64,000 nt of DNA, from contig CAWECG010000004.1 of NCBI GenBank assembly GCA_963807605.1, positions 640,001 through 704,000 of the forward strand, given 5' to 3'. The notes below the pieces were generated by a model. That model ran no database searches, had not been told where the DNA came from, and saw nothing but the letters and a program-made list of their open reading frames with translations. Position numbers and translations under genes: made by a program. Below, in pieces: positions 659 through 61,965 of the stretch (its first letter is position 1; each line of letters starts with the position of its first letter). Source of the DNA: Candidatus Bathyarchaeota archaeon (GTDB taxonomy: Archaea > Thermoproteota > Bathyarchaeia > 40CM-2-53-6 > RBG-13-38-9).

Positions 659-964
659 ATATTAGTTGGATCAAACAATATTCCAACCTGAGTATCAAAT
701 CCAAGCTCAGGTTCCGCTTTCTTTCTTCACATTTCTGAATTACCCTGTTAGCGCGCGCTATGAATGTCATATAGATTGCTTTATGTGATTTACTGGTTCT
801 AGGTTCAATAGTACTGCTCGTAAATTACGTAAGATAAGGTATGCTGGGAAATCATGGAGAGTAGAGAAAAAAGTGGATGTGTTAGGCTTCGTCTTTTTCT
901 AATGACTACTACTGTAGATAAGGCTGCGACTAGTAGAGCGCGCTTTGTGGTACTGCCTACAGAG

Positions 965-2350
965 TTAGGGCGTTTTTGAAAGAGACCATAAATGGAGAAA
1001 AGCACTCCGCGTGTACAGCAAATGAAAGAGGTGAGCGAGCACAGGTGTAAGAGGGGTATAGTAGAACTCCCATCCAGTGAAGCGATTAGCAGAAGTCAAG
1101 AAGAAGATAAGGGTCCAGATGACCTGGAGGAACGTCAGCGACACCAGGAAATACCGTTGGCGTCCTCCGTTAAGATGAAGAAAAACTATTGAGGTCAGGA
1201 TTACGGATGAAGTGCTCATGAGAATGCCGTATTGAGGGAGTCTAACGGTTTGCAGAGCGAAGTAAAGAAGTGGGACTGAGGTCAATAGAGTTCCTATCGC
1301 AATCAGATCGGTTACTCGGCGTTTGATGACTGATATGCAAATCTTGTACAGGGCAAGCGGATAGACGAGAATCTCGAATGGTGTGCTGTACATCGCTTGG
1401 ATGTAGACCATGTACCACCACGGGCTTTGAACAGCCTGCGATGGGTCCGCATAGAAGTCAGGTTTCGAAGAGAGTGGATTTGAGCCGACGTGCGGCCAAG
1501 GCAACCCCGATAATTGTTTTCTGGGGATTAAGAATGGATTTCCAGGAATCTTGACTGGTTGACCAACTGTAAGATGGATTCTGTTGTATATCCAAACCTG
1601 TGAGAGATGGACAAGTGGGCTTGACCACAGATAAGGCTGAACCGCGAAAACCACGAACGCAACGATCCAGAGGAAAACCGCCATTGACTTCCATTCCGAT
1701 TGAAGTCTCCTCTTATAAAGCAGGATTCCTAGCAGCACGAAGATGCCGATGAACGCATAGTACTTACTTGCGATTGATAACGCAAACAGGACTGCACTTA
1801 GGTAGAAATGTATCGTCTTCCCTCCTTTGACATATCGAAGGAAGAAGACCACCGAACACATATAGAAGAAAGCCATTCCAGGGTCCAACAGACCATACGA
1901 TGATTCTGCAATTGAGATCGGGTCGAAGGCCAGTACAACGCATGGAATGATCGCGCCCATATGCGTACAGCCCAGATCTCTCGCTAGAAAGTAGACGACT
2001 AGAACTGTCAGCGTGCCCATGATCACGGAGACGAGACGAATTGCGCCAATACTCCCAGGTAACCACGGGAACAGGAACACAATTTTTCCGTTAGCGCCAA
2101 AAAGCACGGTGCTGCCGGCAAAGAGGAGTTTCATTACCATGGGGTGCCCAATGTTTGCCGTCCAAATTCCACTCAAGTATGATTGAGCCGCTGGCGCATA
2201 CGTAAATGCCTCGTCATAGTCAAGTGCCGCAGACGTAGCGAGTAGAAAACGCAGCAAGAACGCCATGAAAATAATAATAACGAGTTGGATCAGCTTGTTG
2301 TACTGTTCGTTATCTAATTGTGTGCCGACACTCCGAAATGTTTTGACCAA
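965..2350 (-). CDS. GT-C membrane glycosyltransferase (PMT/ArnT-like)
   Basis: Multi-TM; DEAFTY and GHP motifs in the first loop, SKY motif. Confidence 0.8.
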   Translation of the reverse strand: MVKTFRSVGTQLDNEQYNKLIQLVIIIFMAFLLRFLLATSAALDYDEAFTYAPAAQSYLSGIWTANIGHPMVMKLLFAGSTVLFGANGKIVFLFPWLPGSIGAIRLVSVIMGTLTVLVVYFLARDLGCTHMGAIIPCVVLAFDPISIAESSYGLLDPGMAFFYMCSVVFFLRYVKGGKTIHFYLSAVLFALSIASKYYAFIGIFVLLGILLYKRRLQSEWKSMAVFLWIVAFVVFAVQPYLWSSPLVHLSQVWIYNRIHLTVGQPVKIPGNPFLIPRKQLSGLPWPHVGSNPLSSKPDFYADPSQAVQSPWWYMVYIQAMYSTPFEILVYPLALYKICISVIKRRVTDLIAIGTLLTSVPLLYFALQTVRLPQYGILMSTSSVILTSIVFLHLNGGRQRYFLVSLTFLQVIWTLIFFLTSANRFTGWEFYYTPLTPVLAHLFHLLYTRSAFLHLWSLSKTP

Positions 2351-2824
2351 ACTGAAGCCGGCTATTATTATTGGTGGTGAGGCAGCGTTATTTAGACTTA
2401 TTATTCATAGTGATATTGTGATATCGACATTCCCAACATTGAGTGTAGCATTTGATAGAGAAATGCATTCAAGAAACCATCAATATTGAGTGTATTCAAT
2501 CGAGTTCTTGAAACTCTGCCATCTATCATTCGTGGCTAGAGGAAACTAGAGTCGATGTTGAAATGGAGTGACAAGCAGCTCAACAAGAAACAGCACGAAG
2601 CACTTGAAGCAATCTCGCTCTTTCACGTAGAGGCACCACAAGGTGCGCGCTTGAAGCCACTATGTCTGCAATATTAGAACTTCAACGTATTTACGTCCTT
2701 CAATCATGAGGTTTGCGTGTTCAACTTCGTGTCCCGACTGTTAACAGCTGGAAGAATGTCCCACGAACGTAACAGAACCCTTTTCAGAACACCGATTTTT
2801 CCACATATTAAAGTAAGGAAGAAA

Positions 2825-2838
2825 GTCTTAAGTAAGAC
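2825..2838. promoter_or_regulatory. Inverted repeat, probable operator of the AbrB-VapC operon
   Basis: GTCTTA-AG-TAAGAC between a TATTAAAG box (~2806) and ATG 2870. Confidence 0.5.
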
Positions 2839-2869
2839 CCTAAAATTTTGTATTAATGCGGTGGGTGTA

Positions 2870-3130
2870 ATGACCAAAGTAGTGAGTGTTACTCAAAAGG
2901 GCCAGGCAACCATTCCTAAAGCCCTGAGAGACAAGTTCAGAGTTAAAGGAAAAGTTCTCGTGGTTGAGACGTCGGAAGGCATACTCTTTAAACCCCTGCC
3001 ACGTCCTGAAGACGACTTCGGCTCATTAAAGCAGCACTTCAAAGGAGAGACGGCGCGAAAGGTTCTGGACGAAGCCAGGAGTAGAGACGAGCTGCGGGAG
3101 AAGAGGCTGCTGGAGAAAATCAGAGATTGA
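2870..3130 (+). CDS. AbrB/MazE/SpoVT-family antitoxin
   Basis: MTKVVSVTQKGQATIPKALRDKF...GILFKP; start re-called at ATG 2870; overlaps the PIN gene. Confidence 0.9.
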   Translation: MTKVVSVTQKGQATIPKALRDKFRVKGKVLVVETSEGILFKPLPRPEDDFGSLKQHFKGETARKVLDEARSRDELREKRLLEKIRD

Positions 3131-3751: not shown

Positions 3752-5124
3752 TTGACACTCACCCGCCTAAAGGCGGGGTGATTCTAGCTTCTATACTGTT
3801 CACCGGTCTAGTGTTCACTGGCCTGTTAGCCTGCCACTTCATGCCATCCCACTTTAGAAGGTCAGGGTGCGTCATCACCCTTACAGCTGTTCCTTCACGT
3901 TGAAGGTTTGCCATGTTCAAGACTCCAATAGCATCCCTGTGAACTTCCATCCCACACTCCAAGCATTTGAAGAGTCTGCCTTTCCTCTCAATGTTTTCTG
4001 AGCTGCATCTTATGCATCTGCTTGAAGTCTTGTATTCGCTGACTTCTTTCACTCTTATGCCGTATTCTTGTGCCGTACACTTTAGTCTTTGAATGATGTA
4101 TTTGAAGCTCCAGAAGTTATGGATCATAGCGTTGCTCTTCTTTCCTTTATCGTTGCCGTCTCTGATGCCTGTTAGGTCTCCTATCACAATCTTTGAAACA
4201 CCGAGATCATATAGATCTCTTACCATGACTCTTATCATGGTGTTGATGGCCTGCCGGAATCTCCGTTGCCTTATCCTGTACAGTCTACTGAGGTGCTTCG
4301 AACTTTTCTTGCCGTTGATTGTTTCAAGTATGCTCTGGCAATTTGCTATTCTATCAACCCAGTACCACCAATCTGCTAGGAGGTTTCTCCCGCTGAATGC
4401 TATTGGTTGCCTCCATCCTTCAAGCCAGATAGTGAACAGGTTGATAATGCCGATGTCGATGTAGCAGGTCTTGGAGCCTTGCGGCTTGAAGATTGGCTTT
4501 ATTTTAACAGCCTGAAAGACACGCCACTTCTTATCTATGTTATCATAGATGACTTCGGCTTTCCCCTGTCTTCCGCTCCATTTTGGCTTGCCTCGGATGG
4601 GTATTTTCATCTTCTTTGGTAGCTTCATCACTCCATCCTTCAGGCTGTAGATGTCGTTTCTCAGAACCATCATCAGCCTGTACTTTCCATCTCGCTTCCA
4701 GTATCCAGGCATACACACCTTCTCAATATTTAGTGGCAGTCTGCCTTCTCGCTCCAGCTGCTTTAATGCGAAGAAGCTCCTCCATGACTCGTTGTTCTTC
4801 CTGATGATCTGTTGAGATGTCGCCGAATCGATTAGTGGTGTATACCTTTGATAGAGGTCTTTGCACTCCCAGTCCAGGGGTTGATAGTTCATGTATGCCT
4901 GTCTTTTGTGGTAGGTTGCCTCATTCCAAAGTTTAGCACAGTTGGTAGCTCTTTCTCGCAGTATCCTCTCTTGCCCCACTGTTGGAGCAAGGATGAAGGT
5001 GTTAGTTCTCCGCATGAAACTACCAGTATTATTATTGAAAAACCAGACATTTAAGCCCCAAACGTCTCACTCTGGTCGCAATTCATCCCACCCCTGAAGG
5101 GGTGGGCTTTCTTGCTAGTTCAAT
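3752..5124 (-). mobile_element. IS200/IS605-family tnpB-only element, family A copy 2 (complete)
   Basis: LE: TTAC| + 14 nt + AAAG + hairpin; RE: GAAT + hairpin CACCCCGCCTTTAGGCGGGTG + TCAA|; no target-site duplication. Confidence 0.93.
3759..5015 (-). CDS. tnpB: TnpB RNA-guided nuclease
   Basis: RuvC-I IDIG, IGDL, VSEYKTS, Zn ribbon CIRC..CLEC, RuvC-III HRDAIG. Confidence 0.95.
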   Translation of the reverse strand: MRRTNTFILAPTVGQERILRERATNCAKLWNEATYHKRQAYMNYQPLDWECKDLYQRYTPLIDSATSQQIIRKNNESWRSFFALKQLEREGRLPLNIEKVCMPGYWKRDGKYRLMMVLRNDIYSLKDGVMKLPKKMKIPIRGKPKWSGRQGKAEVIYDNIDKKWRVFQAVKIKPIFKPQGSKTCYIDIGIINLFTIWLEGWRQPIAFSGRNLLADWWYWVDRIANCQSILETINGKKSSKHLSRLYRIRQRRFRQAINTMIRVMVRDLYDLGVSKIVIGDLTGIRDGNDKGKKSNAMIHNFWSFKYIIQRLKCTAQEYGIRVKEVSEYKTSSRCIRCSSENIERKGRLFKCLECGMEVHRDAIGVLNMANLQREGTAVRVMTHPDLLKWDGMKWQANRPVNTRPVNSIEARITPPLGG

Positions 5125-5213
5125 GTAATCGATACCAAGTTGATGGAGAACTTTCAAGAACCGCTCAGCGCTGATCTTGAGCCTAACCAGTTCAGGCAAA
5201 CGTGTGGACAATC

Positions 5214-7334: not shown

Positions 7335-8718
7335 TTGACACTCCCATGCCTAAAGACAGGGGATTCTAACTTCTATCATGTTCATCGGTTGATGGGTCAT
7401 AGCGTTGTTGCGCTCCCACCTCATTCCATCCCACTTTAGAAGGTTAGGGCGTGTCATCGCCCTGTTAATGACTCCCGCAGGAAGCTTAACCCCCTGAGTG
7501 AGTCCTATATTTACAACACCAATAGCATCCCTATAAGCCTCCAATCCACATTCTAGACACTTGAAGAGTCTGCCTTTCCTCTCAATGTTCTCTGAGCCGC
7601 ATCTTACGCATTTGCTCGATGTTTTGTATTCGCTAACTTCTCTCACTCTTATGCCGTACTCTTGCGCTGTATACTTTAGTCTTTGAATAATGTAGTTGAA
7701 GCTCCAGAAGTTGTGGATTATAGCGTTGCTCTTCTTTCCATTATCATTGTTCTCTCTTATGCCTGTCAGATCTCCTATCATAATCTTTGAAACACCGAGA
7801 TCATAGAGGTCTCTTGCCATGCTTCTTATCATGGTGTTGATTGCTTGTCGGAATCTCCGTTGCCTTATCCTGTAGAGTTTGTTGAGTCGCTTCGAACTCT
7901 TCTTGTCGTTTATTGTTTCAAGTTTGCTCTGGCATTCTGCTATTCTATCGACCCAGTACCACCAATCTGCTAGGAGGTTTCTTCCACTGTATGCTATTGG
8001 TTGCCTCCACCCTTCAAGCCAGATGGTGAACAGGTTAATTACACCAGGGTCGATGTAGCATGTCTTGGAGCCTTGCGGCTTGAATAATGGCTTTGTTTTA
8101 ATTGCCTGAAAGACACGCCACTTCCCATCAACCTCATCATAGATGACCTCGCCCCTACCCTGCTTACCATTCCATCTAGGTTTACCTTTGAAGGGTATCC
8201 TCAGTCCTTTAGGTAGTTTCATCACTCCATCCTTTACACTGTAGCAGTCTTTTCTCAGAACCATCATCAATTTGTATTTTCCATTTCTCTTCCAGTATCC
8301 CGGCATGCATACCTTCTCAATATTTGGTGGCAGTCTGCCTTCTCGCTCTAGCTGCTTTAATGCGAAGAAGCCCCTCCATGACTCGTTGCATTTCCTGAGT
8401 ATTTGTTGTGTTGTCGCTGAATCGATTAGTGGTGTGTACTTTTGATAGAGGTCTTTGCACTCCCAATCTAGGGGTTGATAGTTTACGTATGCCTGTCTTT
8501 TGCGGTAGGTTGCCTCATTCCAAAGTTTGGCACAGTTAGTAGCTCTATCCCTCAGTATCCTCTCTTGCTCCACTGTTGGAGCAAGGATGAAGGTGTTAGT
8601 TCTCCGCATGAAACTACCAGTATTATTATTGAAAAACCAGACATTTAAGCCCCAAACGTCTCACTCTGGTCGCAATTCATCCCACCCCTGAAGGAGTGGG
8701 CTTTCTTGCTAGTTCAAT
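7335..8718 (-). mobile_element. IS200/IS605-family tnpB-only element, family A copy 3 (complete)
   Basis: LE TTAC|...AAAG hairpin; RE GAAT-CCCCTGTCTTTAGGCATGGGAG-TG-TCAA|. Confidence 0.93.
7350..8609 (-). CDS. tnpB: TnpB RNA-guided nuclease
   Basis: IDPG, IGDL, VSEYKTS, CVRC..CLEC, YRDAIG; close paralog of 3759-5015. Confidence 0.95.
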   Translation of the reverse strand: MRRTNTFILAPTVEQERILRDRATNCAKLWNEATYRKRQAYVNYQPLDWECKDLYQKYTPLIDSATTQQILRKCNESWRGFFALKQLEREGRLPPNIEKVCMPGYWKRNGKYKLMMVLRKDCYSVKDGVMKLPKGLRIPFKGKPRWNGKQGRGEVIYDEVDGKWRVFQAIKTKPLFKPQGSKTCYIDPGVINLFTIWLEGWRQPIAYSGRNLLADWWYWVDRIAECQSKLETINDKKSSKRLNKLYRIRQRRFRQAINTMIRSMARDLYDLGVSKIMIGDLTGIRENNDNGKKSNAIIHNFWSFNYIIQRLKYTAQEYGIRVREVSEYKTSSKCVRCGSENIERKGRLFKCLECGLEAYRDAIGVVNIGLTQGVKLPAGVINRAMTRPNLLKWDGMRWERNNAMTHQPMNMIEVRIPCL

Positions 8719-8876
8719 GTAAGAGAGGATTATTACCGCATCAAGAAGCTCTTCTTGAGAGCTTTTTCAGCTTCTTCTAGTTTTGTCGATGCGACCTCAA
8801 GTGATCTGGCGGTCTTCGCAGCATCTGGTCTTCCCCGCCTTAGCAGCCTCTTCTGAAAGCACTCTGTGAGATTCAT
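8719..8876 (-). pseudogene. HEPN-domain protein, 5' fragment (frameshifted, IS-interrupted)
   Basis: ATG overlaps the MNT stop (ATGA); MNLTECFQKRLLRR...LEEAEKAL/[fs]EELLDAVIILSY| at the TTAC junction. Confidence 0.75.
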
Positions 8877-9421: not shown

Positions 9422-9422
9422 A

Positions 9423-9464
9423 GAACAATCGTTCAATATAAAGAACAATTGTTCTTTATAAAAA
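9423..9464 (-). promoter_or_regulatory. Tandem palindromic operators plus TATA box of the MNT-HEPN operon
   Basis: GAACAATCGTTC (9423-9434) and AGAACAATTGTTCT (9442-9455) next to TTTTTATAAA. Confidence 0.7.
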
Positions 9465-13076: not shown

Positions 13077-13239
13077 ACTGAAGCAGCATCGTAGGCTTAT
13101 GTGTGCTACTTAAGTCGTCAATTGTGGGATTGGGCGGGATCCGTCTAGCCACGCGCGCTTTAAGCTCTTGTGACGTTGTTTTCGGTGTCCTTGGCAATAG
13201 AGGTATTGAATCGGTTAGGAGACTCATCGATCAGGTACA

Positions 13240-14152: not shown

Positions 14153-14170
14153 CTATGGCGCGCGCCCACT

Positions 14171-14195: not shown

Positions 14196-14198
14196 CAT

Positions 14199-27294: not shown

Positions 27295-28032
27295 TCACAC
27301 TCCTCTTCTATAAGAATAGAATTTCATTAACAACCATCTTCCTATTTTTGGAAATTTGTGTATGATTCGTCCGAGTCTAATATTCGGTGTGGAGCCTGAA
27401 CCATGAAGGATGCGTTCTAATTCAGCCAGATAGACTCTTTCGCGCAGAATACGGCTGGCGCGCGCTTCTGCAATAAAGCCCTCGTACTTGCATATGAAAT
27501 CCTGCCTATCAAGAGGAATATCTTCAACAGGTATACTGTGCAAGAATCTAAGCCAAGCTGCCGCTCGCTCCAGCTGTTTGGATAATGCCCACAGTTTGCC
27601 CTGTGTAGGGGGGATTATTCTGGTCCATCGCAGGAGATCATTCAGACATTGGCCCTCAACTCCGGCTGCGATCACAGTGTTCAATCTCTCGATCACATCT
27701 ATTGGCTCTGAGATCTTGAAATTACTTGAATTCCTGAAGTGCATCCATGCAATCTAGTGCCTTCGAAATTCGTCAACCGCAGCACCATCATCTAGATAAA
27801 CCTTCGCAAAGAGAGTCCTTTCCACCTGACCGATCCTTGCATCTTCAAGAACAACCTTGAAGGTCTGTCGCGCATACAATCCTTTTGGCGGAAAGCTCGC
27901 ATTCCAGCGCAAAGATAGAAAAGAGTTTCCCATTATACGGAAGGTCAAGTTCGGGTGACCTTTCAATTCGGGAAAGTACTGTGAGAGCCGCGGCTTTATT
28001 TCATCAGCCAACAGGTCTATTGTTCGTTTCAC
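27295..28032 (-). pseudogene. Chimeric pseudogene: 5' half of kinase-like gene (nonsense at 27754) fused to a methyltransferase 3' end
   Basis: 27466-28032 is paralogous to 33058-34116; 27295-27457 is paralogous to the C-terminus of 28105-28914; junction GCGCGCGC at 27458-27465. Confidence 0.88.
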
Positions 28033-30181: not shown

Positions 30182-30489
30182 CTTGTGTTGAACCTGTCAA
30201 CCATTCTTTTGTTCCGCATAAATTCAATTTCAGGTCAAACTGTTCCAAGCAGTTACGCAACCGCGATCTAGGACACTCAAATGAATAGGCAAGCTATGCC
30301 CGGATCAGCCCCTGCACGTGACTCTGACCCGCAGTCATCCAGAACGACTTTAGCGAGTGCCTCACACACGATGTGGACAGATATCTAGCGGAAGGCTTAC
30401 GTAACCCTTCCTCGACAATTCCACTCACCCTACAATCCCCAAACCCGCTCCAGAACCTATTATTGACAATACTGTTCCATACGCGCGCG

Positions 30490-31114: not shown

Positions 31115-31164
31115 GCGCGTGCGCTGCCAGGTAGACCAATTAACATCTCTCCGTAACCAGTTCT

Positions 31165-32146
31165 TTATTCTTGCTTGACGGATACCGACCATTCTTCAAT
31201 ACGAAGGATGTCCTCCATACTTAACCTATACGAAATATCCTCACCAATCTCATAGTTTCTGCCTTCCATCCTAAAGAACCGATTTCCCCACGCGCTCGCC
31301 CGTGTGTTCGTACGCAATGGTGATGTGTCAAAACTGATCTCGTCGTCAAATATGACTCGGAAATAAAAACATAATCCGTCCATTGACCCAGAGCGAACCA
31401 CTCGTTTCGACGTCTCTATAAATTTGGGGAAGTCACTTTGAGACGTTAATTCGTTGAGATCAAATGCAAGAATAGCCCTTGGCTCACATAGAAAGTAGTC
31501 CAAAGCAGCGGGCCCCACCCATTTCAGCTTGTAGCCAGCAGGTTTGAACGCGTGCGCGCGTTTGAACTTATCGATTTCATCCAAATATTTTAGAAATCCA
31601 TAGTCGATATTGTTCAGTCTATTTTCCCATAAAAAAGGAACCTTATGATCCTTTCTTAGGCTGATCGGTTCAAGAAAGAGTTCAAACTTACTCGACAGGA
31701 TTCGCCCTGTTTTTTAGTAAACGATCTTTCAGATCCAAAACGTCTTGGACCATATTCTCGTTAAAAAGATTATCGCCCATCTGTTCTTGAAGAATAATGT
31801 CTACGTTCTCTGGCGGTGCAAAGTCTCGACTATTGGTCTGCACAAATTCAATATTACTTATATTGTTGTGTTCCGCAATTCTCCGTGCTACTTTAATAAT
31901 ATCTGAATGATCGATCGCATAGATTCTCTTTGGTTTTTGTTCAGCCGCATAAAATGAGAGAATTCCTGTCCCGGTGCCAAGGTCAACGACAACATCACCT
32001 GGCTTGATGTAACGTTTGATAGCATCATGATAGCTTTTATTCCGAACAGTATCTGCAAGCATCTTTTCGTGTTCGTAAAGGTCGTTAAATTCTTCAACGG
32101 CTTTTGCGTCAATGAGGAGGGTCCGAAGAAATCTGCTCGAATTCAA
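31165..32146 (-). pseudogene. PRMT-like (arginine methyltransferase fold) SAM methyltransferase, frameshift near 31710
   Basis: EHEKMLADTVRN, VVDLGTGTGIL, VDIILQEQMG..LFNE, then FELFLEP...DGLCFYF.VIF...STSP...WG. Confidence 0.75.
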
Positions 32147-32248
32147 GAGTCTTATTAGACTTGGAAGGACCAGCGCAGTGACTTTTCGGTTATTTGTGAC
32201 ACTTCAAAAACTCCTCCGAATACCCCTCTAAGCGCGCGCTTTTTAAGC

Positions 32249-34274: not shown

Positions 34275-35342
34275 CTATTTGTAGCGCGCGCGTTTGAGAA
34301 GATCTATTGATCGATAGGCCCTATAGATGATCTTCTTTCTAGCAGCTAGCATTCTTAGGTTCCCTCTTCTGAGTGTATTCCACCGCCGTTTGTAGGGTTC
34401 ACTCTCGTGCCCCCTCATAAAATCATATTCCTTCAGACCCCACTTAATGCTGCTCGCTATAAGATAACGATTCAAAAGCGATCCAACGCTGTACTTGGAA
34501 TAGAAAGGTTCAAAACCAGATTGGTAGAAATACATCTTATCAGAATACTTGAAATTATACTGAGCCGCTACAGGCCGGCTGTCCGGCATCAAGAAGCTCA
34601 GGGCCAACCATCCTTTCTCTGCAAAGGACCTTGCCACGTCGAGATGGAAATCTCGTACCTTCTGATCTGAGAAAATACCAACTAAATTCTTGGAACGCAT
34701 ACGCCTTTGATGTAGATCAAAGAAAACCTCCATGGCATTATCGGGGAGTTCGCCCTCCGTCAAAACCCTGAAATGTACTTTGTGGTTCTCCTTCAATCTT
34801 CTTTCCTGCCTTCTTAGGTCTTTTATGAAATGTGGGTCGACTCCTCGCAAGTAGTCCCCGAAATCGTTCGGTAGTGGAATGTAAGCACATCCGACCATTT
34901 CCTTTTCTTTAAAGTCCATGGATTCGGATGAAGCTGATCTTAGTAGTTTAGCCGTCTCAAAGCAATTAGACACGTTGTTCAGTTCGATAACGTTCCAACT
35001 CGGCTTATTCTGGTTTACATAATCAAGGATCATATCTACAGGTTCCTTAGCCTTCGCAGTGAGTAGGAAGCTATGATAATCTGACTCCGGAGTTCCAACG
35101 AATTCTACCTTAAGCCCCAGCATCGGGCATCTAGAGATCATTAGCGGAGCCGCGGCCAAGATTCTTTCGCCATCGACAACTGTGACCAGAAGAAACCCCC
35201 TCCCCGTCCCGAAATGTTTCCACCAATTTGACAACCACTCCCATGTTAGGAATACATGGTTATCGATACTTTCTTTCAAAGTACTGTTCCATAGATCTCT
35301 CCGATCCAAGAACTCTTCCAAGGACCACTTGACTACTCTCAA
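34275..35342 (-). CDS. GNAT acetyltransferase (CelD/BcsL-like), paralog of 26015-27088
   Basis: Same motifs; inverted orientation. Confidence 0.9.
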   Translation of the reverse strand: MRVVKWSLEEFLDRRDLWNSTLKESIDNHVFLTWEWLSNWWKHFGTGRGFLLVTVVDGERILAAAPLMISRCPMLGLKVEFVGTPESDYHSFLLTAKAKEPVDMILDYVNQNKPSWNVIELNNVSNCFETAKLLRSASSESMDFKEKEMVGCAYIPLPNDFGDYLRGVDPHFIKDLRRQERRLKENHKVHFRVLTEGELPDNAMEVFFDLHQRRMRSKNLVGIFSDQKVRDFHLDVARSFAEKGWLALSFLMPDSRPVAAQYNFKYSDKMYFYQSGFEPFYSKYSVGSLLNRYLIASSIKWGLKEYDFMRGHESEPYKRRWNTLRRGNLRMLAARKKIIYRAYRSIDLLKRARYK

Positions 35343-35868: not shown

Positions 35869-36119
35869 GCGCGCGCTGTTAGTTCATTTGTCAAAATACG
35901 CACCAGATCTGACCTAAGAGTTGACTGAGGAATATCCTCATAACTATGACATCTAAGGACGGCTGGTCCTCACAAGTTCTATCTCTTAAGTGTTCCTTTC
36001 TGAGCACAACATCTTTCTCAGCGACATGTCAGAATAATTGTTTCGAACGCGCGCGCTACCAATAACATAACTCTGGTCCTAGCCTACATATATGCAATGT
36101 TTGCACAGGCGTCAAACAA

Positions 36120-37430: not shown

Positions 37431-37602
37431 GCGCGCGCATTCTTCGATTCATTGAGTTTATCGAGGACATAGATATCATTAGACGCTTCCCGACATTCCC
37501 AAGGCCAAATTGTACCTATTTCCAGTAGACGCCATCAGCTATATATCCGTTTACCCCATTGGCCAGTTCATTGGATAAGTTTCTTTTGGACTACACACGC
37601 AC

Positions 37603-39401: not shown

Positions 39402-39706
39402 TTTGTCTTCCTTGCTAGATTTACGCGCCTGCCACTTGGCTTCCTCATTAGCTTTCGCATTTCTCTTCCATTTATGTCCATACCATATATGCTGCTTCTG
39501 AGAACAAAACGTACTGGTTTTTGACCCCTAGAACTCTCAATAACATTGTATCGCCCGTGACTGTGACATCGAAAGGAGGCAGTTCTTCAACCGAAGTTCC
39601 ATCTCTTAAGCGTTACGTGCACGTAGTCTCCTCGAACAATCCATCAGGACGACCCTCCGGTTTGGGAAGGACCTCCCAATAACGTCAAAAGGTGAATAGC
39701 GCGCGC

Positions 39707-41457: not shown

Positions 41458-41748
41458 CGGTCTTGCACCAACTGATCGATCTGATGAATCAATAAGATAT
41501 TAAAAGGCTAGCGCATGATGACATGTCAGTCCAGACTTCAAAAAAGGGCAAAAATGCCTTCACGTGCTCTAAACTGCACAATCACGCAGGGTTGCCAAAT
41601 ACTCAGGCACCCCTAGAATCATGGCCTCACACCATAATAGCTGAGAGGATAGCAAGGATTTGCAACTATGATAGGTTTAGAATAACAGCGTCGTTATACC
41701 ATTTGAATATCGCCTGCGAGCATAATTGTCTGTTGTCACAACGCGCGC

Positions 41749-42105: not shown

Positions 42106-42168
42106 GCGCGCGCTAGACTCCAAAAAACACAGCAGCATCTGTTTGCTCACGTAATACTAGCAGGGAAT

Positions 42169-43374: not shown

Positions 43375-43410
43375 TCTTAACTATGTTGCATAGTGTTCAG
43401 GTCAGTGCAA

Positions 43411-45901: not shown

Positions 45902-46704
45902 TTTGAATAAATGTTTTTGATGGTTACGGAAGCTCAAATGACTGAGATCTCTCGATAAGTCATCGACATAAACAAAAGCGCGCCCCCTGACAACGAGTAC
46001 GGACACTGCACTAATCCAAAGAGTTTAGAGCTGGTATGCGCTGCATGCTTTAGCGCGCGCAGATTCCTCCTAGTCCAAACGGTCAAAAGAGGTTTTCATT
46101 CAATCGCATGCCAAACATACTCATCCATGAACAAAGATGGAAGAGGGACCTTCACATAGGCGCGCTCATCGATTGTTGCACATACTTTTTGTCCTTGAAA
46201 CTGTAGCCAGCTATCCGTAAGATTTTCTCCTAAATATGATAGGGAAAGTGGTGGTGTATCCCTCGGTAGGCTCTCATACCGAATCCAACGGTTCAATTTC
46301 AGGTACGTGCACGCGACCTATGGCATCGTTGTCATATCTCTTGGTGAGAGCATTCTAATTTGAATCACTAGGTTTCATTCTTTTGGTTGCAGTGGTGTCA
46401 TACATGATGAGAGCATCAAGATTTGAACAACTAAAATTCCTGATCCCAGCGTACTCATCTGGGCTTCTTGATAATAAAACCATGAACTTGGCGCAGGATA
46501 GCAGATTGAGGGTCCTATAATACACCCCACCCAAAGCCTCGCCGGAAAAATGTGTATGAACGACTTCACTAGTTGTTCCGATACTATCACTGGTAAATTG
46601 AACCCGCGCAACTCCGCCTCCCCGCGCAGTTACTGTAATGTTTCTTAGTCCAGCGATTTTGCAAAAAGTCACGTTTGTTCCAACAAACATACAACACATG
46701 ATCG

Positions 46705-47634: not shown

Positions 47635-47836
47635 AAGTTAATTACTTCGTTTGCCCTTAAGTTTTCTTGAGTGTCCTTATTGCCTAATGTTACCAACTTA
47701 GAAGTAGCTTTTCCAAGCATAAGCTAAGTTCTCCACGTATGAACTGGTCGCTAGGCTATTTTAAGTACAAATAAAGCATCTACTAGAAGGAGAATCGCGC
47801 GCTTATTGGTGTGTGCCATAGCTAGTGAGCGCAAAT

Positions 47837-51581: not shown

Positions 51582-54500
51582 TTAAGCGCCATTTGAGAGC
51601 GCGGCAGGTCTACGTGATCTTCTTTCATAGATATTCTCATCCGAGTAGCCAACATAACGACTTAGTAAGAATAGTGAAGTGAACATAACGGTTACTAATA
51701 ATGCATATGGGATCATAAGGATGAATGAAGCTGTTTCGTCAAACTTCATTCGTGGAGAATCGTATCTGACTTTTATTGGGGAAGGAATACTGTAAGGGAA
51801 TGCTATGGTGGCCTCATCTGACAAGTAAATGTGAAGTGTAAGGTTTCCATCCAGCGTTATATCGCGACCATCACTGTATATTGGTGGCGCTCCATGCATG
51901 AAATAAAAGCTTTCAAGGCGGATCTTCCCGTTGACAGACACATCTGGTTGTCTCATCAGCAGGGTCACGTTTCCAGTCATATTTACTGATGATAATTCTC
52001 CGGCAGTCTCGTCCTTTCCGTTCATGTGGCTCGTTCGGTCTGTAAGGACTATTGAAGGATCATGTGCTACCACTGTGGTATAGAATCCATATCCTTTCTC
52101 AACAGTCACTTCATCACTTGTAACTTGGATTACACGGGCCTCACCAACACTAATATTGTCCATTCTTGCCAGAGAGTCATGTAATTTATCTGTCTGTTCT
52201 CCCAGCATGTTATCTTCTGGGAGATTAGTTAGTTGTATGGATCCGGAAACAAGCTTGATTGTTCCAGTTGCATTCAATCTTGTAAATAGCAGGCTGGGTT
52301 CAAGTGTAAACCATGGGGAGAGCGTTGTTGCGTCGAAGGGTTTGATCCGGTCACTTAGGACTTCGATAATACACTCAACCGCCGCTTTATTGAAAACTTG
52401 ATTTATACTAATCAGCGGATAAATATTGACATAGATTAGGCTAACTCGGTTTATAGTAGTCGCCATAATAAACGGCGACGAATTAGAATTTGCAACATAC
52501 CGAGCTTTAACATCAGCGCCAGTAGATTCAATCGCAGGCACCTTCACGGAAGGCAGCATTCCCAAATACTTGCTTGTGGCTATGCCACTAGCACTAAATA
52601 TCCCCGTGGTCATCCTGCCAAAATGACTAAGAAACGGCCCGTAGCCGTTTGTGTTTAGTACTACAACCGAACGGACTCGAGCTGTTTGGCTGTTCACAAC
52701 CTGGTTGAAGATGTCATAGCATGTCAGGTCATCATAAGGAAGCACCAGAACGTCGTGATTCTCTATCCCATTGTCATTCGAGACCATTGTTGTGTAATTG
52801 AATCCAGATGATGAAAGAATGTCATAGGCATAGAATATCGATTCGGTTGATGGGGGGATACCATCTAAGACCTGGACATGCCATAACATCATATTGGCAA
52901 ATGAGGTTGTGACGTTGTTCATTAGCTCCGCTCCAATCACAATATTGGTATTAGTCTTTGAAACTCCCTTGTCATAGGGTTTTGAAGCTACGTTTCTGTC
53001 GTTGACAAAGATCTTCATGAAATATCCATCGTATTCAGCTCTCAAAACGTACTGCACGTTAGGTGATAGTATTTCGTCTGTCAGTAATACTTCTTCTTTG
53101 TTCCCGTCTGGGGATATTTTGAAGGCTATCTTTTTCCCATATTGGGCTATTTCCCAGCTTTTCCGTGGAGGTGTGCCCCAATCAAATTTACTGATTATTA
53201 CCTGATTGTGCGTTAAATCCAGAGGTTGAAACTTCAGTTCTACTAGGATCTTGTCAAAGTTAGTATTTTCGTCATCAAGTCTAATAGAGCTGTTCACGCC
53301 ATTGAAAATGGCCGTTCCATTTAACTTGACATTGGTACCGCTCGGCCCTTCCTTGTAAAAATTTAGAGATCGCATGCTATCTTCGAAAAAAAGTCCCAGT
53401 ACCATGAATTGTTTGTCCGATTGGTACCATGTCTTGGGCGGCATAGCGGCTTTTGTCGAGGCGTCGTATGGTATAACCAAAGCTGTAGAACTTTCGTTGA
53501 CCGGTATAGACCAGTTGTTGATCTGCTTTATTGCAAGCTCTTCATTACTAAGGTATACTGGAGCAGTGTCGCTCAGGTGTTGGAGGTACGCTTCCTTGCG
53601 ATCCATAGTCATTTGGGAATCCAGAGTTTTGTTGACGAAGATGTATGTCGGGACTAGTTTTGAGACCCTAGTGACAAATAGCGGGAACTCCGGGCTGTTT
53701 GATCTCCATGCTGCGGGCGATTCTTGGTATATTGCGACAGCTCCCGTGTAATCCAAGTATTCTCCAGGAATCTGCGGATCGGCTATTATTACTCCACTGC
53801 CGTTTTGGTATATCCTGTCCCTCAGAGTTTCAATCACGCTTAATACTTTTGAACTGGCGACGTTCGTTTGAGTTGCGTTATGATAATACTCAAACCCTAA
53901 GAATACCGACGACATGCCTGAGATGAAGATGAGCGAAACCATAACATAAACAATCCAAGGGTTCGATGGACTTCGCGGTCTCCTCATCTTGACCAAGGCG
54001 ACTTTACTTAAGACTAGTGATCCGACGATCGCCAGTGGGATTCTTAATATTTCTAGCATTCTATCTTCCCTCATAAGAGACAGAATAGATTGCAAACTTG
54101 CAAACATATAATTATGAGGATTATACAAAAATTCAGAGGCATAATTTGTATTAATAATTGATATGAGTCTGCCTCCAAATAATAAAAGAGGTACAGAAAC
54201 TGCAACAGCTAGAAGTTCTCTAGATTTATAATGTTCATTCGTCAAAATTATATATATTGAAGGAAAATACAGTACCCCCAAGATCCCCAGCCTCATTGGG
54301 TAAAGGAACCAAGGGATATAGCCGAATATATCCAAACTTCCGTATTCAAAAGGGAGGTTACCACTGAACCAGAGAAGTATGGCGGCGAGATACATGGTCA
54401 ATACAAACAAGGTCAGGGCAACTCCTATGCTTTTCATACTGGCTTTCACATTTATTTTAGAGGAGAGTCTGATGGGCATCCTTATCCGAGTCAGCACCAG

Positions 54501-55892
54501 AATAGCTAGGCCCAAAGGAATATACTCTAATAATGGCTTGAAGGTTCCGCCGGTATACACGCCTAAAACGTAGGCCACAAGCATGGTTCCAAGAGGCGCT
54601 ACAACGAGAGAATAGCCAAACGATTTAAGCGGCTTCTTCATTTGGTTTTTTGCAAAAAGTGCAAAACAGAGCAGAAACCCATAAAGAAGGGGCATTACTC
54701 CCGGGTGTATCAGTGGAAGTGGAATCAATAGAAAAACCATAAGTAGGGTGAGCTTAAACCTCGGCATATCATCTCGCTTCAAAAGATATAACAAGGAGAA
54801 GGCAATTCCCAACGATAATTCCATCGGCAGGTGAAAGAATAATCGTCTCCAAGTAATGTCGCCGTACGAAATAACATCTGCATTTGAGATTAGGGACAGC
54901 ATTGACTCATTCTGAGTAACAGTCCGCTCAGCGATAAAGCTTAACCAGCCAAAACCTGAGAACATCGTCCACATCGCGGTTGCTACCGCAGGCACATACC
55001 TGCCATAGTTCTTCAAATATGCATTAGCCATCACATAAAATGCGATAATTATTAGAAAGTTTACAAGAATTGAAGTCAAATGAAAAGCGTCAACGGGATG
55101 AGAAGATGGGGGGAGTGGCCCAACGAGTGTAATAATATACGACTCATAAACCGAAAAAAGCGGATACAGTAAAGAAAGATAATAAATTCCTCCTGGAGGA
55201 TACTTCGAGTACGCCAACGCTGTCAAGAACATCCTTGAAAGGTCCCATCCTAAGACGTTGCCTAGCGCAGGATACAGGTCTGCAATAAAGTATCCAAAAA
55301 TCAATAGAACGATTCCGATTACCAAAGAATCACTGCCAAGTGATAGCTCAAATTTGTTGCATGGAAGTCCTTTGTTTCGCCTCCAATTTAGTGCGTATGA
55401 CAATAAACATAGGAAAAGAACGATTCCGAACACCGACAAATTCCTAGAGGTTACGGGCATTAGAAATAAGGCGGTCCCAACGATCATCAGTAGTACTACA
55501 CTAATTGTAAAGGACAGGGATAAAGTCTCAAAGAGAGAACTTCGAGCCTCGTAACGCATAATCTGGAGGATAGAAAGGCCTGGAGCCAAGAGTATGACAA
55601 CCACATAGAGGAACGGGCGTATTTGCGCAATTGTGTCGCTTAAGACCGAAATCAAAAGCAATATCGCCGAACAAATAAGAAATAACGGAATAATTGTGCG
55701 CCCACGGGATGGAATCTTCAGTATCAGTCGAGGATGCCTGCCCGTAGCAGAGACTACCACTGCCACGACTAGTAGGACCCAAAAGAGATATAGAATGTAG
55801 GAGCGTGGGGGAGTACTCAGAAATAGTACTATAGTACCAATCAAAGTGGGGATTACGATGTTTAAGAAATGCCTCGGTAATTCAATCACCAT
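51582..55892 (-). CDS. Large multi-pass membrane protein with extracellular LamG/ConA-like lectin domain
   Basis: About 20 TMs in the N-terminal 670 aa; FNGVNSSI...IISK...YDGYFMKIFVN...IVIGA LamG pattern; C-terminal TM. Confidence 0.7.
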   Translation of the reverse strand: MVIELPRHFLNIVIPTLIGTIVLFLSTPPRSYILYLFWVLLVVAVVVSATGRHPRLILKIPSRGRTIIPLFLICSAILLLISVLSDTIAQIRPFLYVVVILLAPGLSILQIMRYEARSSLFETLSLSFTISVVLLMIVGTALFLMPVTSRNLSVFGIVLFLCLLSYALNWRRNKGLPCNKFELSLGSDSLVIGIVLLIFGYFIADLYPALGNVLGWDLSRMFLTALAYSKYPPGGIYYLSLLYPLFSVYESYIITLVGPLPPSSHPVDAFHLTSILVNFLIIIAFYVMANAYLKNYGRYVPAVATAMWTMFSGFGWLSFIAERTVTQNESMLSLISNADVISYGDITWRRLFFHLPMELSLGIAFSLLYLLKRDDMPRFKLTLLMVFLLIPLPLIHPGVMPLLYGFLLCFALFAKNQMKKPLKSFGYSLVVAPLGTMLVAYVLGVYTGGTFKPLLEYIPLGLAILVLTRIRMPIRLSSKINVKASMKSIGVALTLFVLTMYLAAILLWFSGNLPFEYGSLDIFGYIPWFLYPMRLGILGVLYFPSIYIILTNEHYKSRELLAVAVSVPLLLFGGRLISIINTNYASEFLYNPHNYMFASLQSILSLMREDRMLEILRIPLAIVGSLVLSKVALVKMRRPRSPSNPWIVYVMVSLIFISGMSSVFLGFEYYHNATQTNVASSKVLSVIETLRDRIYQNGSGVIIADPQIPGEYLDYTGAVAIYQESPAAWRSNSPEFPLFVTRVSKLVPTYIFVNKTLDSQMTMDRKEAYLQHLSDTAPVYLSNEELAIKQINNWSIPVNESSTALVIPYDASTKAAMPPKTWYQSDKQFMVLGLFFEDSMRSLNFYKEGPSGTNVKLNGTAIFNGVNSSIRLDDENTNFDKILVELKFQPLDLTHNQVIISKFDWGTPPRKSWEIAQYGKKIAFKISPDGNKEEVLLTDEILSPNVQYVLRAEYDGYFMKIFVNDRNVASKPYDKGVSKTNTNIVIGAELMNNVTTSFANMMLWHVQVLDGIPPSTESIFYAYDILSSSGFNYTTMVSNDNGIENHDVLVLPYDDLTCYDIFNQVVNSQTARVRSVVVLNTNGYGPFLSHFGRMTTGIFSASGIATSKYLGMLPSVKVPAIESTGADVKARYVANSNSSPFIMATTINRVSLIYVNIYPLISINQVFNKAAVECIIEVLSDRIKPFDATTLSPWFTLEPSLLFTRLNATGTIKLVSGSIQLTNLPEDNMLGEQTDKLHDSLARMDNISVGEARVIQVTSDEVTVEKGYGFYTTVVAHDPSIVLTDRTSHMNGKDETAGELSSVNMTGNVTLLMRQPDVSVNGKIRLESFYFMHGAPPIYSDGRDITLDGNLTLHIYLSDEATIAFPYSIPSPIKVRYDSPRMKFDETASFILMIPYALLVTVMFTSLFLLSRYVGYSDENIYERRSRRPAALSNGA

Positions 55893-57383: not shown

Positions 57384-58565
57384 TCATGGAGTTAACGCCA
57401 TTGAGTGAGTGCTTACTGGACCAACCCCGTGCACTGAGCGTGTGCTAATTGCTTCAAAGGCAGACCTCCAATCGGCCAGTATCTTCTCCTCATTATAGTG
57501 GCTTATCAACAGACTGTACGCATCCCTCGATACGTCATTCAAGTCCGGTCTTTCAAGAATCTCTAAGACTCTCCTAGCGATGTATTCTGCTTCTGTATTA
57601 TCCAATAGAAACGCATTTGTTCCATCATCAAATAGACCTGCGAGTCCACCAACGCGCGTGACTAACACTGGAGTTCCACATGCCATAGCTTCCAGCACTA
57701 TGGAAGGCATCCCTTCAGACCGCGAGGGTAGAATGAGAAGCTTTATCCTTTTTAGATAAGTTCCAGGATCATTAGTCCAGGGAACCATAGCCACTCGTTT
57801 CTCAACCTCGGGAGAACCTATCTTTTCCAATACTGTGTCTTTCAAGGGCCCATCCCCGACTATCAGGAAATTAACATCACCCCTCCTTGAGATTATATGT
57901 GGAATTGACATTACAAACTCCAAAACACCTTTTTCCCAGCTCAATCGGGAAACAAAGCCCACAACATTCTTTCTATCAGACGGCTGAGAATAGCTGAACC
58001 TCTCAAGAAACGCTTTATCGCAGAATCTGATGGGCGCCTCAAACACTTTTTTCGAATACTTCCTTAATGGAGGTCTCTTCACTAGACTGCACGTAACAAC
58101 GAGAATACCTTTGGACCATCTATAGTAGAGATTTTCCAAAATGGTAATCGCTCTTCTAGAGGTATTACTCTCTGAACGAATTGAAATGGGAATTCCTCCC
58201 ACATAGACTAGTGGGCTCTTAGCCAAAAGGCGTGATAGTAACACGGGAAGCGGCATCAGGCAATGAGAGAAAATCACAAGGTCGAACTTCTTATGTAATC
58301 TAAGAAGTGATAGGGACACTAACATTTGTTCAAATAAGAAAAAGAACCAGTTCAAAAACATGTTATTCGACTGTTTGCTTAAGACTCCAGATAATGCCGC
58401 CTCAAAAACCTCCACCTCTTTCGGTAAATATGCACGAGCCCTTCTTTTCGATTGCGTTAAAAAAACGACTCTAAAATTTAGCGACCTCAGGATCTTTATA
58501 GTATCGGTTATGACTGGCGAGGTCAACAGAATTTTCAATGAGAAAACTAAGAGAACTACAGACAT
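57384..58565 (-). CDS. Glycosyltransferase family 4 (paralog of 36120-37262)
   Basis: Start re-called at ATG 58565 (MSVVLLVFS); GFVSRLSWEKG, EGMPSIVLEAMACG. Confidence 0.92.
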   Translation of the reverse strand: MSVVLLVFSLKILLTSPVITDTIKILRSLNFRVVFLTQSKRRARAYLPKEVEVFEAALSGVLSKQSNNMFLNWFFFLFEQMLVSLSLLRLHKKFDLVIFSHCLMPLPVLLSRLLAKSPLVYVGGIPISIRSESNTSRRAITILENLYYRWSKGILVVTCSLVKRPPLRKYSKKVFEAPIRFCDKAFLERFSYSQPSDRKNVVGFVSRLSWEKGVLEFVMSIPHIISRRGDVNFLIVGDGPLKDTVLEKIGSPEVEKRVAMVPWTNDPGTYLKRIKLLILPSRSEGMPSIVLEAMACGTPVLVTRVGGLAGLFDDGTNAFLLDNTEAEYIARRVLEILERPDLNDVSRDAYSLLISHYNEEKILADWRSAFEAISTRSVHGVGPVSTHSMALTP

Positions 58566-60023: not shown

Positions 60024-60035
60024 ATGCGCACATTT

Positions 60036-60537
60036 TCAACGTTTAGTGCCTCTAATGTGGAGACAATCGGGAAGAAACGGTATGCCTCTGTAACCCTTGA
60101 TGACTCTTTTTACATTTGTGATTCCATTAGATTCTAAGCATGATCTAAGAAGACCAAATGAAAAACCGCATCTGTGCTGTTCATAAGGATAACTCTGTCC
60201 TCCATATATGTTCTCCACGTTTTGCCAACTCGGACTTAAGAAGAATAGGAAAGCTCTTGCACGAAGATTGGGACAGCGAATCTCAATAGTTCCGCCTTTC
60301 CTCAGAACACGTACCCATTCCCCTAGCACGCCGACAACATCCTTATGGCTGATGTGTTCAATACAATGACTTGAACTCACATGGTGAAATATCTCACTCT
60401 TGAATGGCAACACTCGAGCATCTGCTACAATATCTGTCACAGGTGTTCTGCGAAGATTCGAGACCTATCATGCCCTCTCTCTTATCGTGGCCGCAACCAA
60501 TCTCAACCCCTAACAACTCTGTGTTATTGTTGGTCAC
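60036..60537 (-). pseudogene. SAM methyltransferase (Methyltransf_11) with one +1 frameshift near 60457 (possibly a sequencing error)
   Basis: GTG 60537: VEIGCG...MIGL|DLRRTPVTDIVADARVLPF...HCIEH. Confidence 0.8.
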
Positions 60538-60539
60538 GT

Positions 60540-61661
60540 TTACTTGTTCCGCCTTCTAACTAGTAGGCTGCCCAAGTATCTGTCCCAATTCTCCCCCGCA
60601 AAGTTATCTACGAAATACCTTTTGCAATTCTTTGACAGACGCAGAAAATTGTCTTGAATATAGCGTATGCCTTCAACCCACTCTTCAGCTTTCGCATCTA
60701 CATCAAGAAGATATCCAGTTTCTTTATTTGAAACGAATTCGGGCAATCCTCCGACATTGCTTGAGACAACAGGCGTCCCATACATATAGGAGACAAGTAC
60801 ACTTGAACTCTGAGTCTCCCGTTTGTATGGTGCAACCACAGCTATGCTTCTCCGAATTAACTTACCAAATTCCTTATCGTTAACTCTATCAGTGTAACAA
60901 ACCGTAAGGTTTTGCTGCTCATATCTCCGCTCCCTTATGCTAAACGGTGAAGTCATCAAGAATTTGTAGTTCAAATGATTATCTTGGGAATACCTCACTA
61001 TCTCCAAGAATTTTTCTGTATTCTTGGCAGGAAGAGGAGGCCCCACAAAAGTAACGTATTGTCTTTCCTGATCATCATTGTCCCAACCGCTTAAGTCCTC
61101 TAACATCAGAGGAACATACACCTTGGTTCCAGAAAAATTCGGATAATGTGATTCAAAGAGATTCGACGCAAGGTTTGATGAGACGATAGCTATATCAGTA
61201 CAGTCAAGCAACCTTCCCTGGAAATGTTCAAACAGATGCAGCCAGTATTGATGAAAACCCCCGTGATACTTTTTATCTTCCACGTATGGTTCATGCACGT
61301 GATAAATAAATAAAGCATTATACTGTTCCGAACGTTTCGCGACTAGATGGTTCAAGAAGTGGTAATTCATCAGGTATACATGGGTGGGGCTATCTTTCGA
61401 GAACACCCTTGCTATTTCCTTACGATTTTCTAGATTCCACGTATCCCGGACCATTGAATGAATGTTTGATGAATTACCAATGAACACTGTCTTCCCCTTT
61501 TCTTCCTTTGACAACATCCATTCATAGCCCCTGCTCAACATATACCTAACAGAGTAACCTTCCTTTTCACATGCACGACCAAAAGCAAAACAGTGGGACT
61601 TAAACACTGGCCGATACATTAGACTACCCACGTAGATTGTCACAGTACGCTTCTCTTTCAT
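60540..61661 (-). CDS. Glycosyltransferase family 4
   Basis: HVHEP, PVVSSNVGGLPE; ATG 61661. Confidence 0.88.
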   Translation of the reverse strand: MKEKRTVTIYVGSLMYRPVFKSHCFAFGRACEKEGYSVRYMLSRGYEWMLSKEEKGKTVFIGNSSNIHSMVRDTWNLENRKEIARVFSKDSPTHVYLMNYHFLNHLVAKRSEQYNALFIYHVHEPYVEDKKYHGGFHQYWLHLFEHFQGRLLDCTDIAIVSSNLASNLFESHYPNFSGTKVYVPLMLEDLSGWDNDDQERQYVTFVGPPLPAKNTEKFLEIVRYSQDNHLNYKFLMTSPFSIRERRYEQQNLTVCYTDRVNDKEFGKLIRRSIAVVAPYKRETQSSSVLVSYMYGTPVVSSNVGGLPEFVSNKETGYLLDVDAKAEEWVEGIRYIQDNFLRLSKNCKRYFVDNFAGENWDRYLGSLLVRRRNK

Positions 61662-61850
61662 GTGTGGGGTTCGGCACACATCCCCATTACTCCCTTCATT
61701 TTCATTCCTACGCGGGTTCCTGGCATGTCGTACTCAACATATCTCTTTCCAGACTCTCCCAGTCTACTTGAGATATCTGGATTCCTTCTCAATGGTTTCA
61801 GGCGGATACCTGGTCCGCCTGCTAACACCACGGCGGTTCCTATTTGAATG
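61658..61850 (-). pseudogene. Chimeric remnant: sugar-phosphate nucleotidyltransferase N-terminus fused to a GT4 C-terminus
   Basis: IGTAVVLAGGPGIRLKPL + RRNPDISSRLGESGKRYVE...(paralogous to the end of 61966-63177). Confidence 0.7.
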
Positions 61851-61965
61851 GATAGTCCCTCCTGTTTTGTTTCCTATCTAGCGCGTGAAATGCAATCGGT
61901 GTTCTGCACATTATACTGGGGGGGAGTATAGGTGGTCATCGTAAGTTTCTCTTCTCAACGTCTGC

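Follow-up and report, generated by a model that had tools for sequence, protein, structure and literature searches.

Additions left by Ku-LigD and TdT/PolX are short or random in sequence, and HIP1 (GCGATCGC), the iterated palindrome of cyanobacteria, occurs throughout coding DNA and is linked to methylases. The archaeal primase PriSL of Saccharolobus performs terminal transfer, after which annealing through 2-4 GC pairs bridges non-complementary ends (PMC3333859, PMC12019639), and the rejoining of ends in archaea without, or beside, Ku-LigD is largely an open question (PMC12019639). Here we describe a short palindromic run of alternating G and C, hereafter the GC patch, that marks rearrangement junctions in the genome of a Candidatus Bathyarchaeota archaeon (assembly GCA_963807605.1; 2.65 Mb in 5 contigs, a metagenome assembly that is 94% complete). 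The patch was first noticed in a 64,000-nucleotide stretch of this genome (hereafter, the window; C4:640001-704000, given as contig and positions), where the original prediction took it for the mark of a rearrangement system. The literature that we searched, which lacked most subscription journals, contains no report of this motif in archaea or of a fixed palindromic filler in prokaryotes.

Enrichment of the GC patch and its position at junctions

Genome-wide, there are 298 copies of GCGCGCGC compared to ~16.5 expected under an order-2 Markov model (~18-fold), which makes it the most over-represented 8-mer of the genome under Markov orders 2 and 3, so that the excess over background anticipated in the original prediction is borne out. 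The window contains 11 copies, with 0.3-0.5 expected under order-1 and order-2 models, in agreement with the predicted ~0.4. The coordinates given there for the 8-mers, for CGCGCGCG and for the 7-mers all proved exact on recounting in the window; only the end of the span, 61887, where there is nothing but a degenerate AGCGCGT, had to be dropped. Counted as maximal GC runs, there are 198 of 8 bp (18.6 expected), 74 of 9 bp (4.1 expected) and 36 of 10 bp (0.9 expected), that is, enrichment of ~10-, ~18- and ~40-fold, respectively; runs shorter than 7 bp are not enriched, those of 4-6 bp being at or under expectation. Lengths of 7-15 bp occur, with a sharp mode at 8 bp and mixed G and C starts. 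The consensus is (T)A-(GC)4-T(A), with the 3' T present in 85% of the runs and with flank conservation that ends two bases outside the run; a second form begins with C, giving CGCGCGCG and runs of odd length.

Only 47 of the 320 runs lie within called genes, though ~80% of the genome is coding, and run density drops as coding density rises. The original prediction placed most copies between genes or at gene ends; an exception is the 7-mer at 19009, within a methyltransferase open reading frame (ORF). The window holds 12 runs of at least 8 bp, inside the range of the 64-kb tiles of the genome (1-26), which argues against an island-specific system; the motif occurs throughout the genome and accompanies variable DNA whatever its nature, so the proposed role in reshuffling a surface-glycan island had to be abandoned.

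A separate dispersed repeat, with ~75 copies, none of them in the window, is the source of an 8-fold excess of CACACACA. This repeat consists of TGTGTGTGTG, followed by GGTGAG within 14 bp and often preceded by TTGAACCG, and occurs in short arrays, some with (GT)n of up to 116 bp (e.g., C1:411200, C3:43156-43298 and C4:17338).

The GC patches are strongly associated with breakpoints. Across the genome, self-alignments end within 3 bp of 78 of the 320 runs, compared to 10.9 +/- 3.2 at shifted positions, which confirms the predicted enrichment at breakpoints; within the window, this is the case for 5 of the 17 runs (0.63 for shifted controls). Likewise, (GC)3 is found at 110 of the 1,272 repeat ends against a background of 0.46%, and proteins are truncated at 25 of the 320 runs versus 5 of the 640 controls (Fisher p 1e-8). 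All seven sites named in the original prediction as places where homology to a paralog stops were recovered, six of them (27458, 30482, 31115, 37431, 39699 and 42106) as blastn alignment ends and 41742 as a tblastx end within ~4 nt.

Un-rearranged alleles lack the patch

At the mapped junctions, the paralog that continues past the break has no GC run. Among the 105 mapped junction sides, ~60 that are not associated with insertion sequences (IS) have a run-less source, and just 5 pairs share a run. Within the genome, collinear alleles show a 10-bp run in place of 6 bp at C1:353532, a 9-bp run in place of 6 bp at C3:74808 (with flanks of 94-99% identity), runs in place of 21 bp and of 9 bp, and a near-pure insertion at C1:249149; in addition, the patch seals three deletions, which span 252 bp, 1,426 bp and 9.8 kb. 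Relatives show the same picture. Two JGI contigs that are 97% alike (92-96% to this genome) differ by 33 bp replaced with a 10-bp run and by 1 bp replaced with an 8-bp run, and JGI relatives from other samples have 402-bp and 14.3-kb deletions sealed by runs where this genome keeps the unbroken, motif-less allele. In one relative (L281), new runs are located exactly at the ends of homology to the window (10766, 14123 and 20117), and the patches at window positions 13152 and 14158 are altered, old patches being inherited and decaying by point mutation. At one site, C3:996969, a CGCGC that was already present is re-used. Thus, replaced sequence of 0-33 bp and up to ~14 kb gives way to an 8-12-bp GC run, usually with an added A before the run. 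Because un-rearranged alleles are without the motif, it is written at the join, not recognized beforehand. Accordingly, of the predicted recombination or end-joining process, the marking of rearrangement junctions stands, with end-joining as the best reading, and the pre-existing recombination site does not.

The anatomy of the join can be resolved at the base level. The source supplies no base of the run in 49 of the 65 clean sides; as in the filler DNA of end-joining, the junction contains bases that come from neither parent. Whenever the source directly adjoins the run, its final base is A (18 of 18 cases), and when this A is an addition, T is the usual last base of the source (10 of the 14 cases; post hoc p ~6e-4). 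A minority of ends join directly through G or C, and some have 2-7 extra bases. It appears that the register, TA(GC)n, is fixed and that each end enters it at the base that it matches.

Most of the window junctions are also recovered in an independent assembly. Logan contigs of the run ERR10755942 match window positions 26803-30102, 30584-37415, 38716-43900 and 43909-48029 at 99.97-100% identity, and a 12-kb motif-rich stretch elsewhere in the genome is matched at 99.99%. ERR10755942 may be the source run of the assembly analyzed here, so this match tests the assembler, not the library; whether the library is at fault is addressed by the relatives in the JGI samples, by the decay of shared copies and by the dependence of the trait on lineage.

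Patchy distribution of the trait

Among 221 Bathyarchaeia genomes, 17, from five families, carry AGCGCGCGCT at 13-131 copies (motif-rich genomes, below); most others have 0-3 copies, and the reversed control is near zero. A member of the same family as the genome analyzed here, 96% complete and with a GC content of 45.5%, lacks 8-bp runs altogether, and along the PriS tree the trait flips several times. A genome from another order bears the same TA(GC)n signature, with protein truncations at 5 of its 125 runs versus 3 of 363 controls. In a genus of another class (g95), the distribution, judged from counts alone, is bimodal, with 118, 88, 70, 33 and 18 copies in five genomes and 0, 0, 0, 3 and 3 in five others. 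Such a bimodal, patchy spread suggests an accessory gene.

A proposed break-rejoining reaction and its alternatives

With moderate confidence, we propose to read the motif as the scar of a reaction that rejoins broken DNA and itself writes the sticky ends needed for this. The reaction would start from a DNA break, presumably double-stranded, followed by short or long resection. An enzyme would then add to each 3' end a short tail whose sequence is set, with (T)A followed by alternating G and C, and the tailed ends would anneal over ~8 bp, to be filled and ligated into end-A(GC)4T-end, whatever the ends; tailing would precede annealing. Because (GC)n is self-complementary, any two tailed ends could anneal, so that a single tail-and-anneal reaction would account for tiny replacements, deletions, joins of unrelated fragments and foreign pieces patched on both sides. 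A requirement for some minimum length of annealing would account for the lack of excess at 4-6 bp and the 10- to 40-fold excess at 8 bp and above. For such chemistry, PriSL offers a precedent, with its terminal transfer and its annealing through GC pairs. As a guess, the enzyme could be a terminal-transferase activity of a primase or a Y-family polymerase, possibly with an accessory factor. More tentatively, and with the odds somewhat against it, the patch might reflect an undescribed, horizontally moving repair module in Thermoproteota whose enzyme writes (T)A(GC)n on ends without a nucleic-acid template and so renders every end compatible with every other, in effect, a natural counterpart of adaptor ligation that would serve repair, deletion and the uptake of foreign fragments.

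Several points weigh against this proposal. Approximately three quarters of the runs have no mapped source allele, and the motif-less state is taken as ancestral from collinearity, with no outgroup at most sites. The two tail types, with AG or AC starts, and the 0-7 untemplated extra bases are looser than a strict template would yield. None of the candidate genes compared with motif counts tracks the trait cleanly, and sequence alone does not tell tailing apart from patch copying or the use of a pre-made adaptor.

Synthesis of the patch in advance seems rather unlikely to us. Under this scenario, a primase-like enzyme would make a free 9-10-nt oligonucleotide, (GC)4T or (GC)4TA, and the self-paired duplex with 3' T or TA overhangs would be joined between A-tailed ends, as in TA cloning. 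The sharp 8-bp mode with flanking A and T fits such an adaptor, as does the size of primase primers, which are 8-10 nt long, and the added A, along with the T/A end preference, matches overhang pairing. However, the 7-15-bp range, the odd lengths and the mixed G/C starts would require slippage or two oligonucleotides, and the PriS tree follows taxonomy, with no residue that splits motif-rich from motif-less genomes.

It appears improbable that the ends instead copy an existing genomic GC palindrome by synthesis-dependent microhomology joining, such that patches breed patches without any sequence-writing enzyme. The genome offers hundreds of templates, some junctions contain 2-7 extra bases ahead of the run, and the re-use of CGCGC at C3:996969 would fit as well; but copying should often carry longer donor flanks, whereas conservation reaches only two bases out, and the first patches and the all-or-none spread within one genus would be left unexplained.

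Another source of the motif, which we rate as quite improbable, is the footprint of two IS1182-like families flanked by GCGCGC, whose insertion and excision would leave the run behind. In this genome, 14 copies of the two families (e.g., L032:1879-3015), with a transposase composed of DUF772 and DDE_Tnp_1, sit within or abut GC runs, and the nearest transposase relatives (at least 55%) are found only in motif-carrying genomes. In-silico removal of the IS restores pre-existing TA(GC)nTA-type targets (as read by eye). The two families use the patch as a target, apparently with a short CG-type duplication. The great majority of patches have no adjoining IS sequence. Furthermore, any transposase relative was detected in just 5 of the 17 motif-rich genomes, with none found in family f28 (0/5) or in G177, G202, G003, G004, G007 and G065, nor in G073, a one-contig genome with 94 copies of the motif. 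Being missing from most motif-rich genomes, these IS are not the makers of the patch.

A pre-existing recombination or methylation site, analogous to HIP1, or a Z-DNA fragile site is very improbable and largely refuted. The motif is a highly iterated 8-bp palindrome, and alternating CG can form Z-DNA, but the source alleles lack the motif on both sides of simple replacements and deletions, and retention of one neighbor per event would predict that about half of the sides are shared, not 5 shared pairs against ~60 unshared sides. The patch avoids coding DNA, unlike HIP1, and shows no link to methylases, C5 cytosine methylases being found in just 3 of the 17 motif-rich genomes, so the analogy with HIP1 drawn in the original prediction fails. 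Finally, although the genome is a metagenome assembly, and chimeras had been a concern from the outset, a library or assembly chimera carrying a linker has a negligible chance of being the explanation, given the near-identical Logan contigs across most window junctions, the patches of their own and the decayed window patches in relatives from two other JGI samples, the 70-99% (not 100%) identity of fragments to their sources, and the dependence of the trait on lineage; the Logan match and the patches in diverged relatives exclude an assembly artefact.

The search for the enzyme

The repair gene complement of this genome includes four genes of the archaeo-eukaryotic primase (AEP) type, Ku, a split LigD-type ligase, PolX, PolY, two PolB and two Mre11-Rad50 operons. 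The enzyme that writes the patch was not found among the candidates tested against motif counts. The closest to a lead, and a weak one, is PolY (PF00817), which is present in 15 of the 17 motif-rich genomes versus 95 of the 204 others (nominal p 8e-4, with kin not independent) and, in genus g95, in 5/5 motif-rich and 3/5 motif-less genomes; a complete genome of family f52 with 22 motif copies lacks it.

PriS and PriL are encoded here and also in motif-less genomes, and their variants follow taxonomy, with a single differing PriL column (T vs A) out of ~300 tested. A stand-alone PriS-like AEP (C3:72234) is represented in 5 of the 17 motif-rich genomes, intact in two of them, as well as intact in motif-less G031; its nominal Fisher p of 0.005 rests on fragments. 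A stand-alone PriS-like primase without PriL (L008:1159-2052, minus strand) was observed to be intact in G000 (the genome analyzed here), in G001 and G031, and in a small number of further genomes, whereas only fragments of it occur in the rest. The core AEP located near nth and the LigD phosphoesterase is present in motif-less G005 and G011 and was not found in G003, G004, G007 and G010. PolX (PF14791) is found in 5 of the 17 motif-rich genomes and in 44 of the 46 genomes of the motif-less family f22, and the filler is of set, not random, sequence. The counts of ligase and PolB genes show no link to the motif.

A complete-looking nonhomologous end joining (NHEJ) operon at C1:589618-592231 comprises genes for the polymerase domain of LigD, for Ku and for an ATP-dependent ligase that is divided between two ORFs; the phosphoesterase of LigD is encoded apart from this operon and adjoins nth at C3:314780. 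The LigD polymerase domain occurs in 66-70 of the 221 Bathyarchaeia, but as PF21686, it is present in only 4 of the 17 motif-rich genomes versus 62 of the 204 others and is common in motif-less families, so that the co-occurrence of LigD or primase-polymerases with the motif that had been suggested was not observed.

Enzymes of other classes were rejected as well. C5 methylases (PF00145), the one methylase type compared (as distinct from N4/N6 methylases), are found in 3 of the 17 motif-rich versus 8 of the 21 motif-less genomes. Cas1, which casposon-type integration would require, was not found in motif-rich G177 and G202 and is present in motif-less G005; moreover, paired patches, which such integration would leave identical, are unlike in length and start. 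Loss of NurA/HerA does not apply, as the core pair is present in G000. No match to PF00078 (RVT_1), the marker of reverse transcriptases (RT), was found in the 94% complete genome, although very divergent RTs could escape such a search. Subtraction of the genes of motif-less G005 from those of G000 together with half of G202 yielded no convincing candidate; for the Mre11-Rad50 operons, the comparison covered just G005 and one half of G202. The operon at C1:511899-517969 encodes a 903-aa protein with a nuclease-like part and an SF1 helicase (Dna2-like), along with Mre11-like and Rad50-like proteins; a second Mre11-Rad50 pair is located at C3:364973. Searches for related loci with window or primase proteins confirmed none, and a DNA search of five relatives yielded nothing useful.

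Features of the window

The window is a surface-glycan island with genes for glycosyltransferases, flippases, methyltransferases, GNAT and APH-like proteins, IS605/TnpB copies and many gene fragments. The GC patches are listed in Table 1, along with the chimeric ORF at 27295-27744, which is fused in frame through the patch; the upstream part contains a stop, so this is a pseudogene.

Table 1. GC patches and associated features of the window (L279, L280, L282 and L283 are Logan contigs)
Feature	Position	Strand	Context and support
GC patch TA-GCGCGCGC-TA	751..758		intergenic; no mapped source allele
old GC patch, 7-bp run	13152..13158		decayed form common to L281, a relative from another sample
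GC patch	14158..14165		decayed form (one substitution) common to relative L281
7-bp GC run	19009		inside methyltransferase ORF 18776-19540; may be chance
chimeric ORF	27295..27744	-	fragment of APH-like phosphotransferase paralog (of 33058-34116) and C-terminal tail of methyltransferase paralog (of 28105-28914)
GC patch at fusion point	27458..27465		absent from both parent genes; encodes A-R-A in the chimera; L282, 99.97%
GC patch TA-CGCGCGCG-T	30482..30489		end of 83% copy of GNAT gene end (26708-27124)
decayed patch GCGCGTGCGC	31115..31124		end of 78% APH-paralog fragment; covered by L279
7-bp GC run	31554..31560		near start of methyltransferase-like fragment
GC patch	32232..32239		directly beyond stop of methyltransferase gene 32249-33028; covered by L279
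9-bp GC patch	34284..34292		last codons of GNAT gene 34275-35342; protein homology to paralogs ends (tblastx); covered by L279
GC patch	35869..35876		intergenic; covered by L279
9-bp GC patch	36048..36056		intergenic; covered by L279
GC patch	37431..37438		end of 82-89% copy of PIG-L gene end (38423-38559)
GC patch	39699..39706		end of glycosyltransferase fragment (77% to 57887-57968); covered by L280
7-bp GC run	41742..41748		end of glycosyltransferase 5' fragment (paralog of 36120-37262); covered by L280
GC patch, added A	42106..42113		opposite end of duplicated fragment 41762-42104; covered by L280
GC patch	46053..46060		intergenic; covered by L283
7-bp GC run	47796..47802		intergenic; covered by L283

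Additional features of the window include a secreted-looking 769-aa protein (21795-24104, minus strand) with >30 tandem 10-aa Thr/Ser-rich units (30-bp period, repeat at ~22300-23560), which is probably the glycosylated stalk of a surface protein. IS200/IS605 elements with TnpB genes and hairpin ends form a cluster at 1-274, 3759-5129, 7350-8723, 9591-9890 and 14198-15508, and three TnpB-like families are present at 13-19 copies genome-wide. Minimal nucleotidyltransferase genes resembling toxin-antitoxin modules (NTP_transf_2; DUF2204/DUF6036) are located at 8873-9475 and 13240-14152 and adjoin a MazE-like gene (2717-3130). A 1,436-aa protein (51582-55892, minus strand) and a 482-aa protein (47837-49285, minus strand) have no Pfam match.

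Implications and comparison with known systems

An 8-12-bp signature left at every use would make the end-joining events of an uncultured group readable across the whole genome, and the trait is simple (0 vs 30-130 copies, bimodal in one genus), which should make the gene findable by comparative genomics. The patch also shapes the genome, fusing gene fragments, as at 27458, and serving as a landing site for two IS families. If the proposed reaction is real, a writer of fixed self-complementary tails would represent a novel DNA-writing activity, one that might be put to use for joining DNA without adaptors.

The GC patch works like a filler insertion at end-joining junctions and does not behave as HIP1, a recombination site, a product of Ku-LigD, PolX, Cas1 or RT, or an IS footprint. 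Like HIP1, it is a highly iterated 8-bp palindrome, but it avoids genes, varies in length and is missing from un-rearranged alleles. Ku-LigD NHEJ and TdT/PolX likewise leave untemplated bases at joins; Ku-LigD and PolX are encoded in this genome, but their distribution does not match that of the motif. The two IS families that sit in the palindrome resemble the palindrome-targeting elements of the IS1272/IS1182 family (PMC5678879). DRT3 synthesizes poly(GT/AC) on a protein template, likewise an alternating dinucleotide made without a nucleic-acid template (PMC13213688), but what it makes is a product of RT-based defence that does not become part of the chromosome, and no RT was found here.

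Interstitial telomeric sequences at double-strand breaks in vertebrates are likewise a fixed repeat recognized via empty orthologous loci (PMC2246262, PMC7215372). Telomerase, however, is an RNA-templated RT, whereas the search of this genome yielded no RVT_1 protein, and the repeat unit of the patch is a dinucleotide that pairs with itself. With PriSL joining, through polymerization across discontinuous templates (PADT) or microhomology-mediated end joining (MMEJ), the GC patch shares an archaeal setting and, under the proposed reaction, terminal transfer and GC-pair bridging; the scars reported for PriSL are mostly 1-2-bp indels with a C/G bias (PMC3333859, PMC12019639), in contrast to a palindrome of 8-12 bp and set sequence, and PriSL is universal, whereas the trait is patchy. 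By analogy, the closest chemistry would be PriSL terminal transfer, and the closest logic would be that of telomeric repeats at breaks (PMC2246262).

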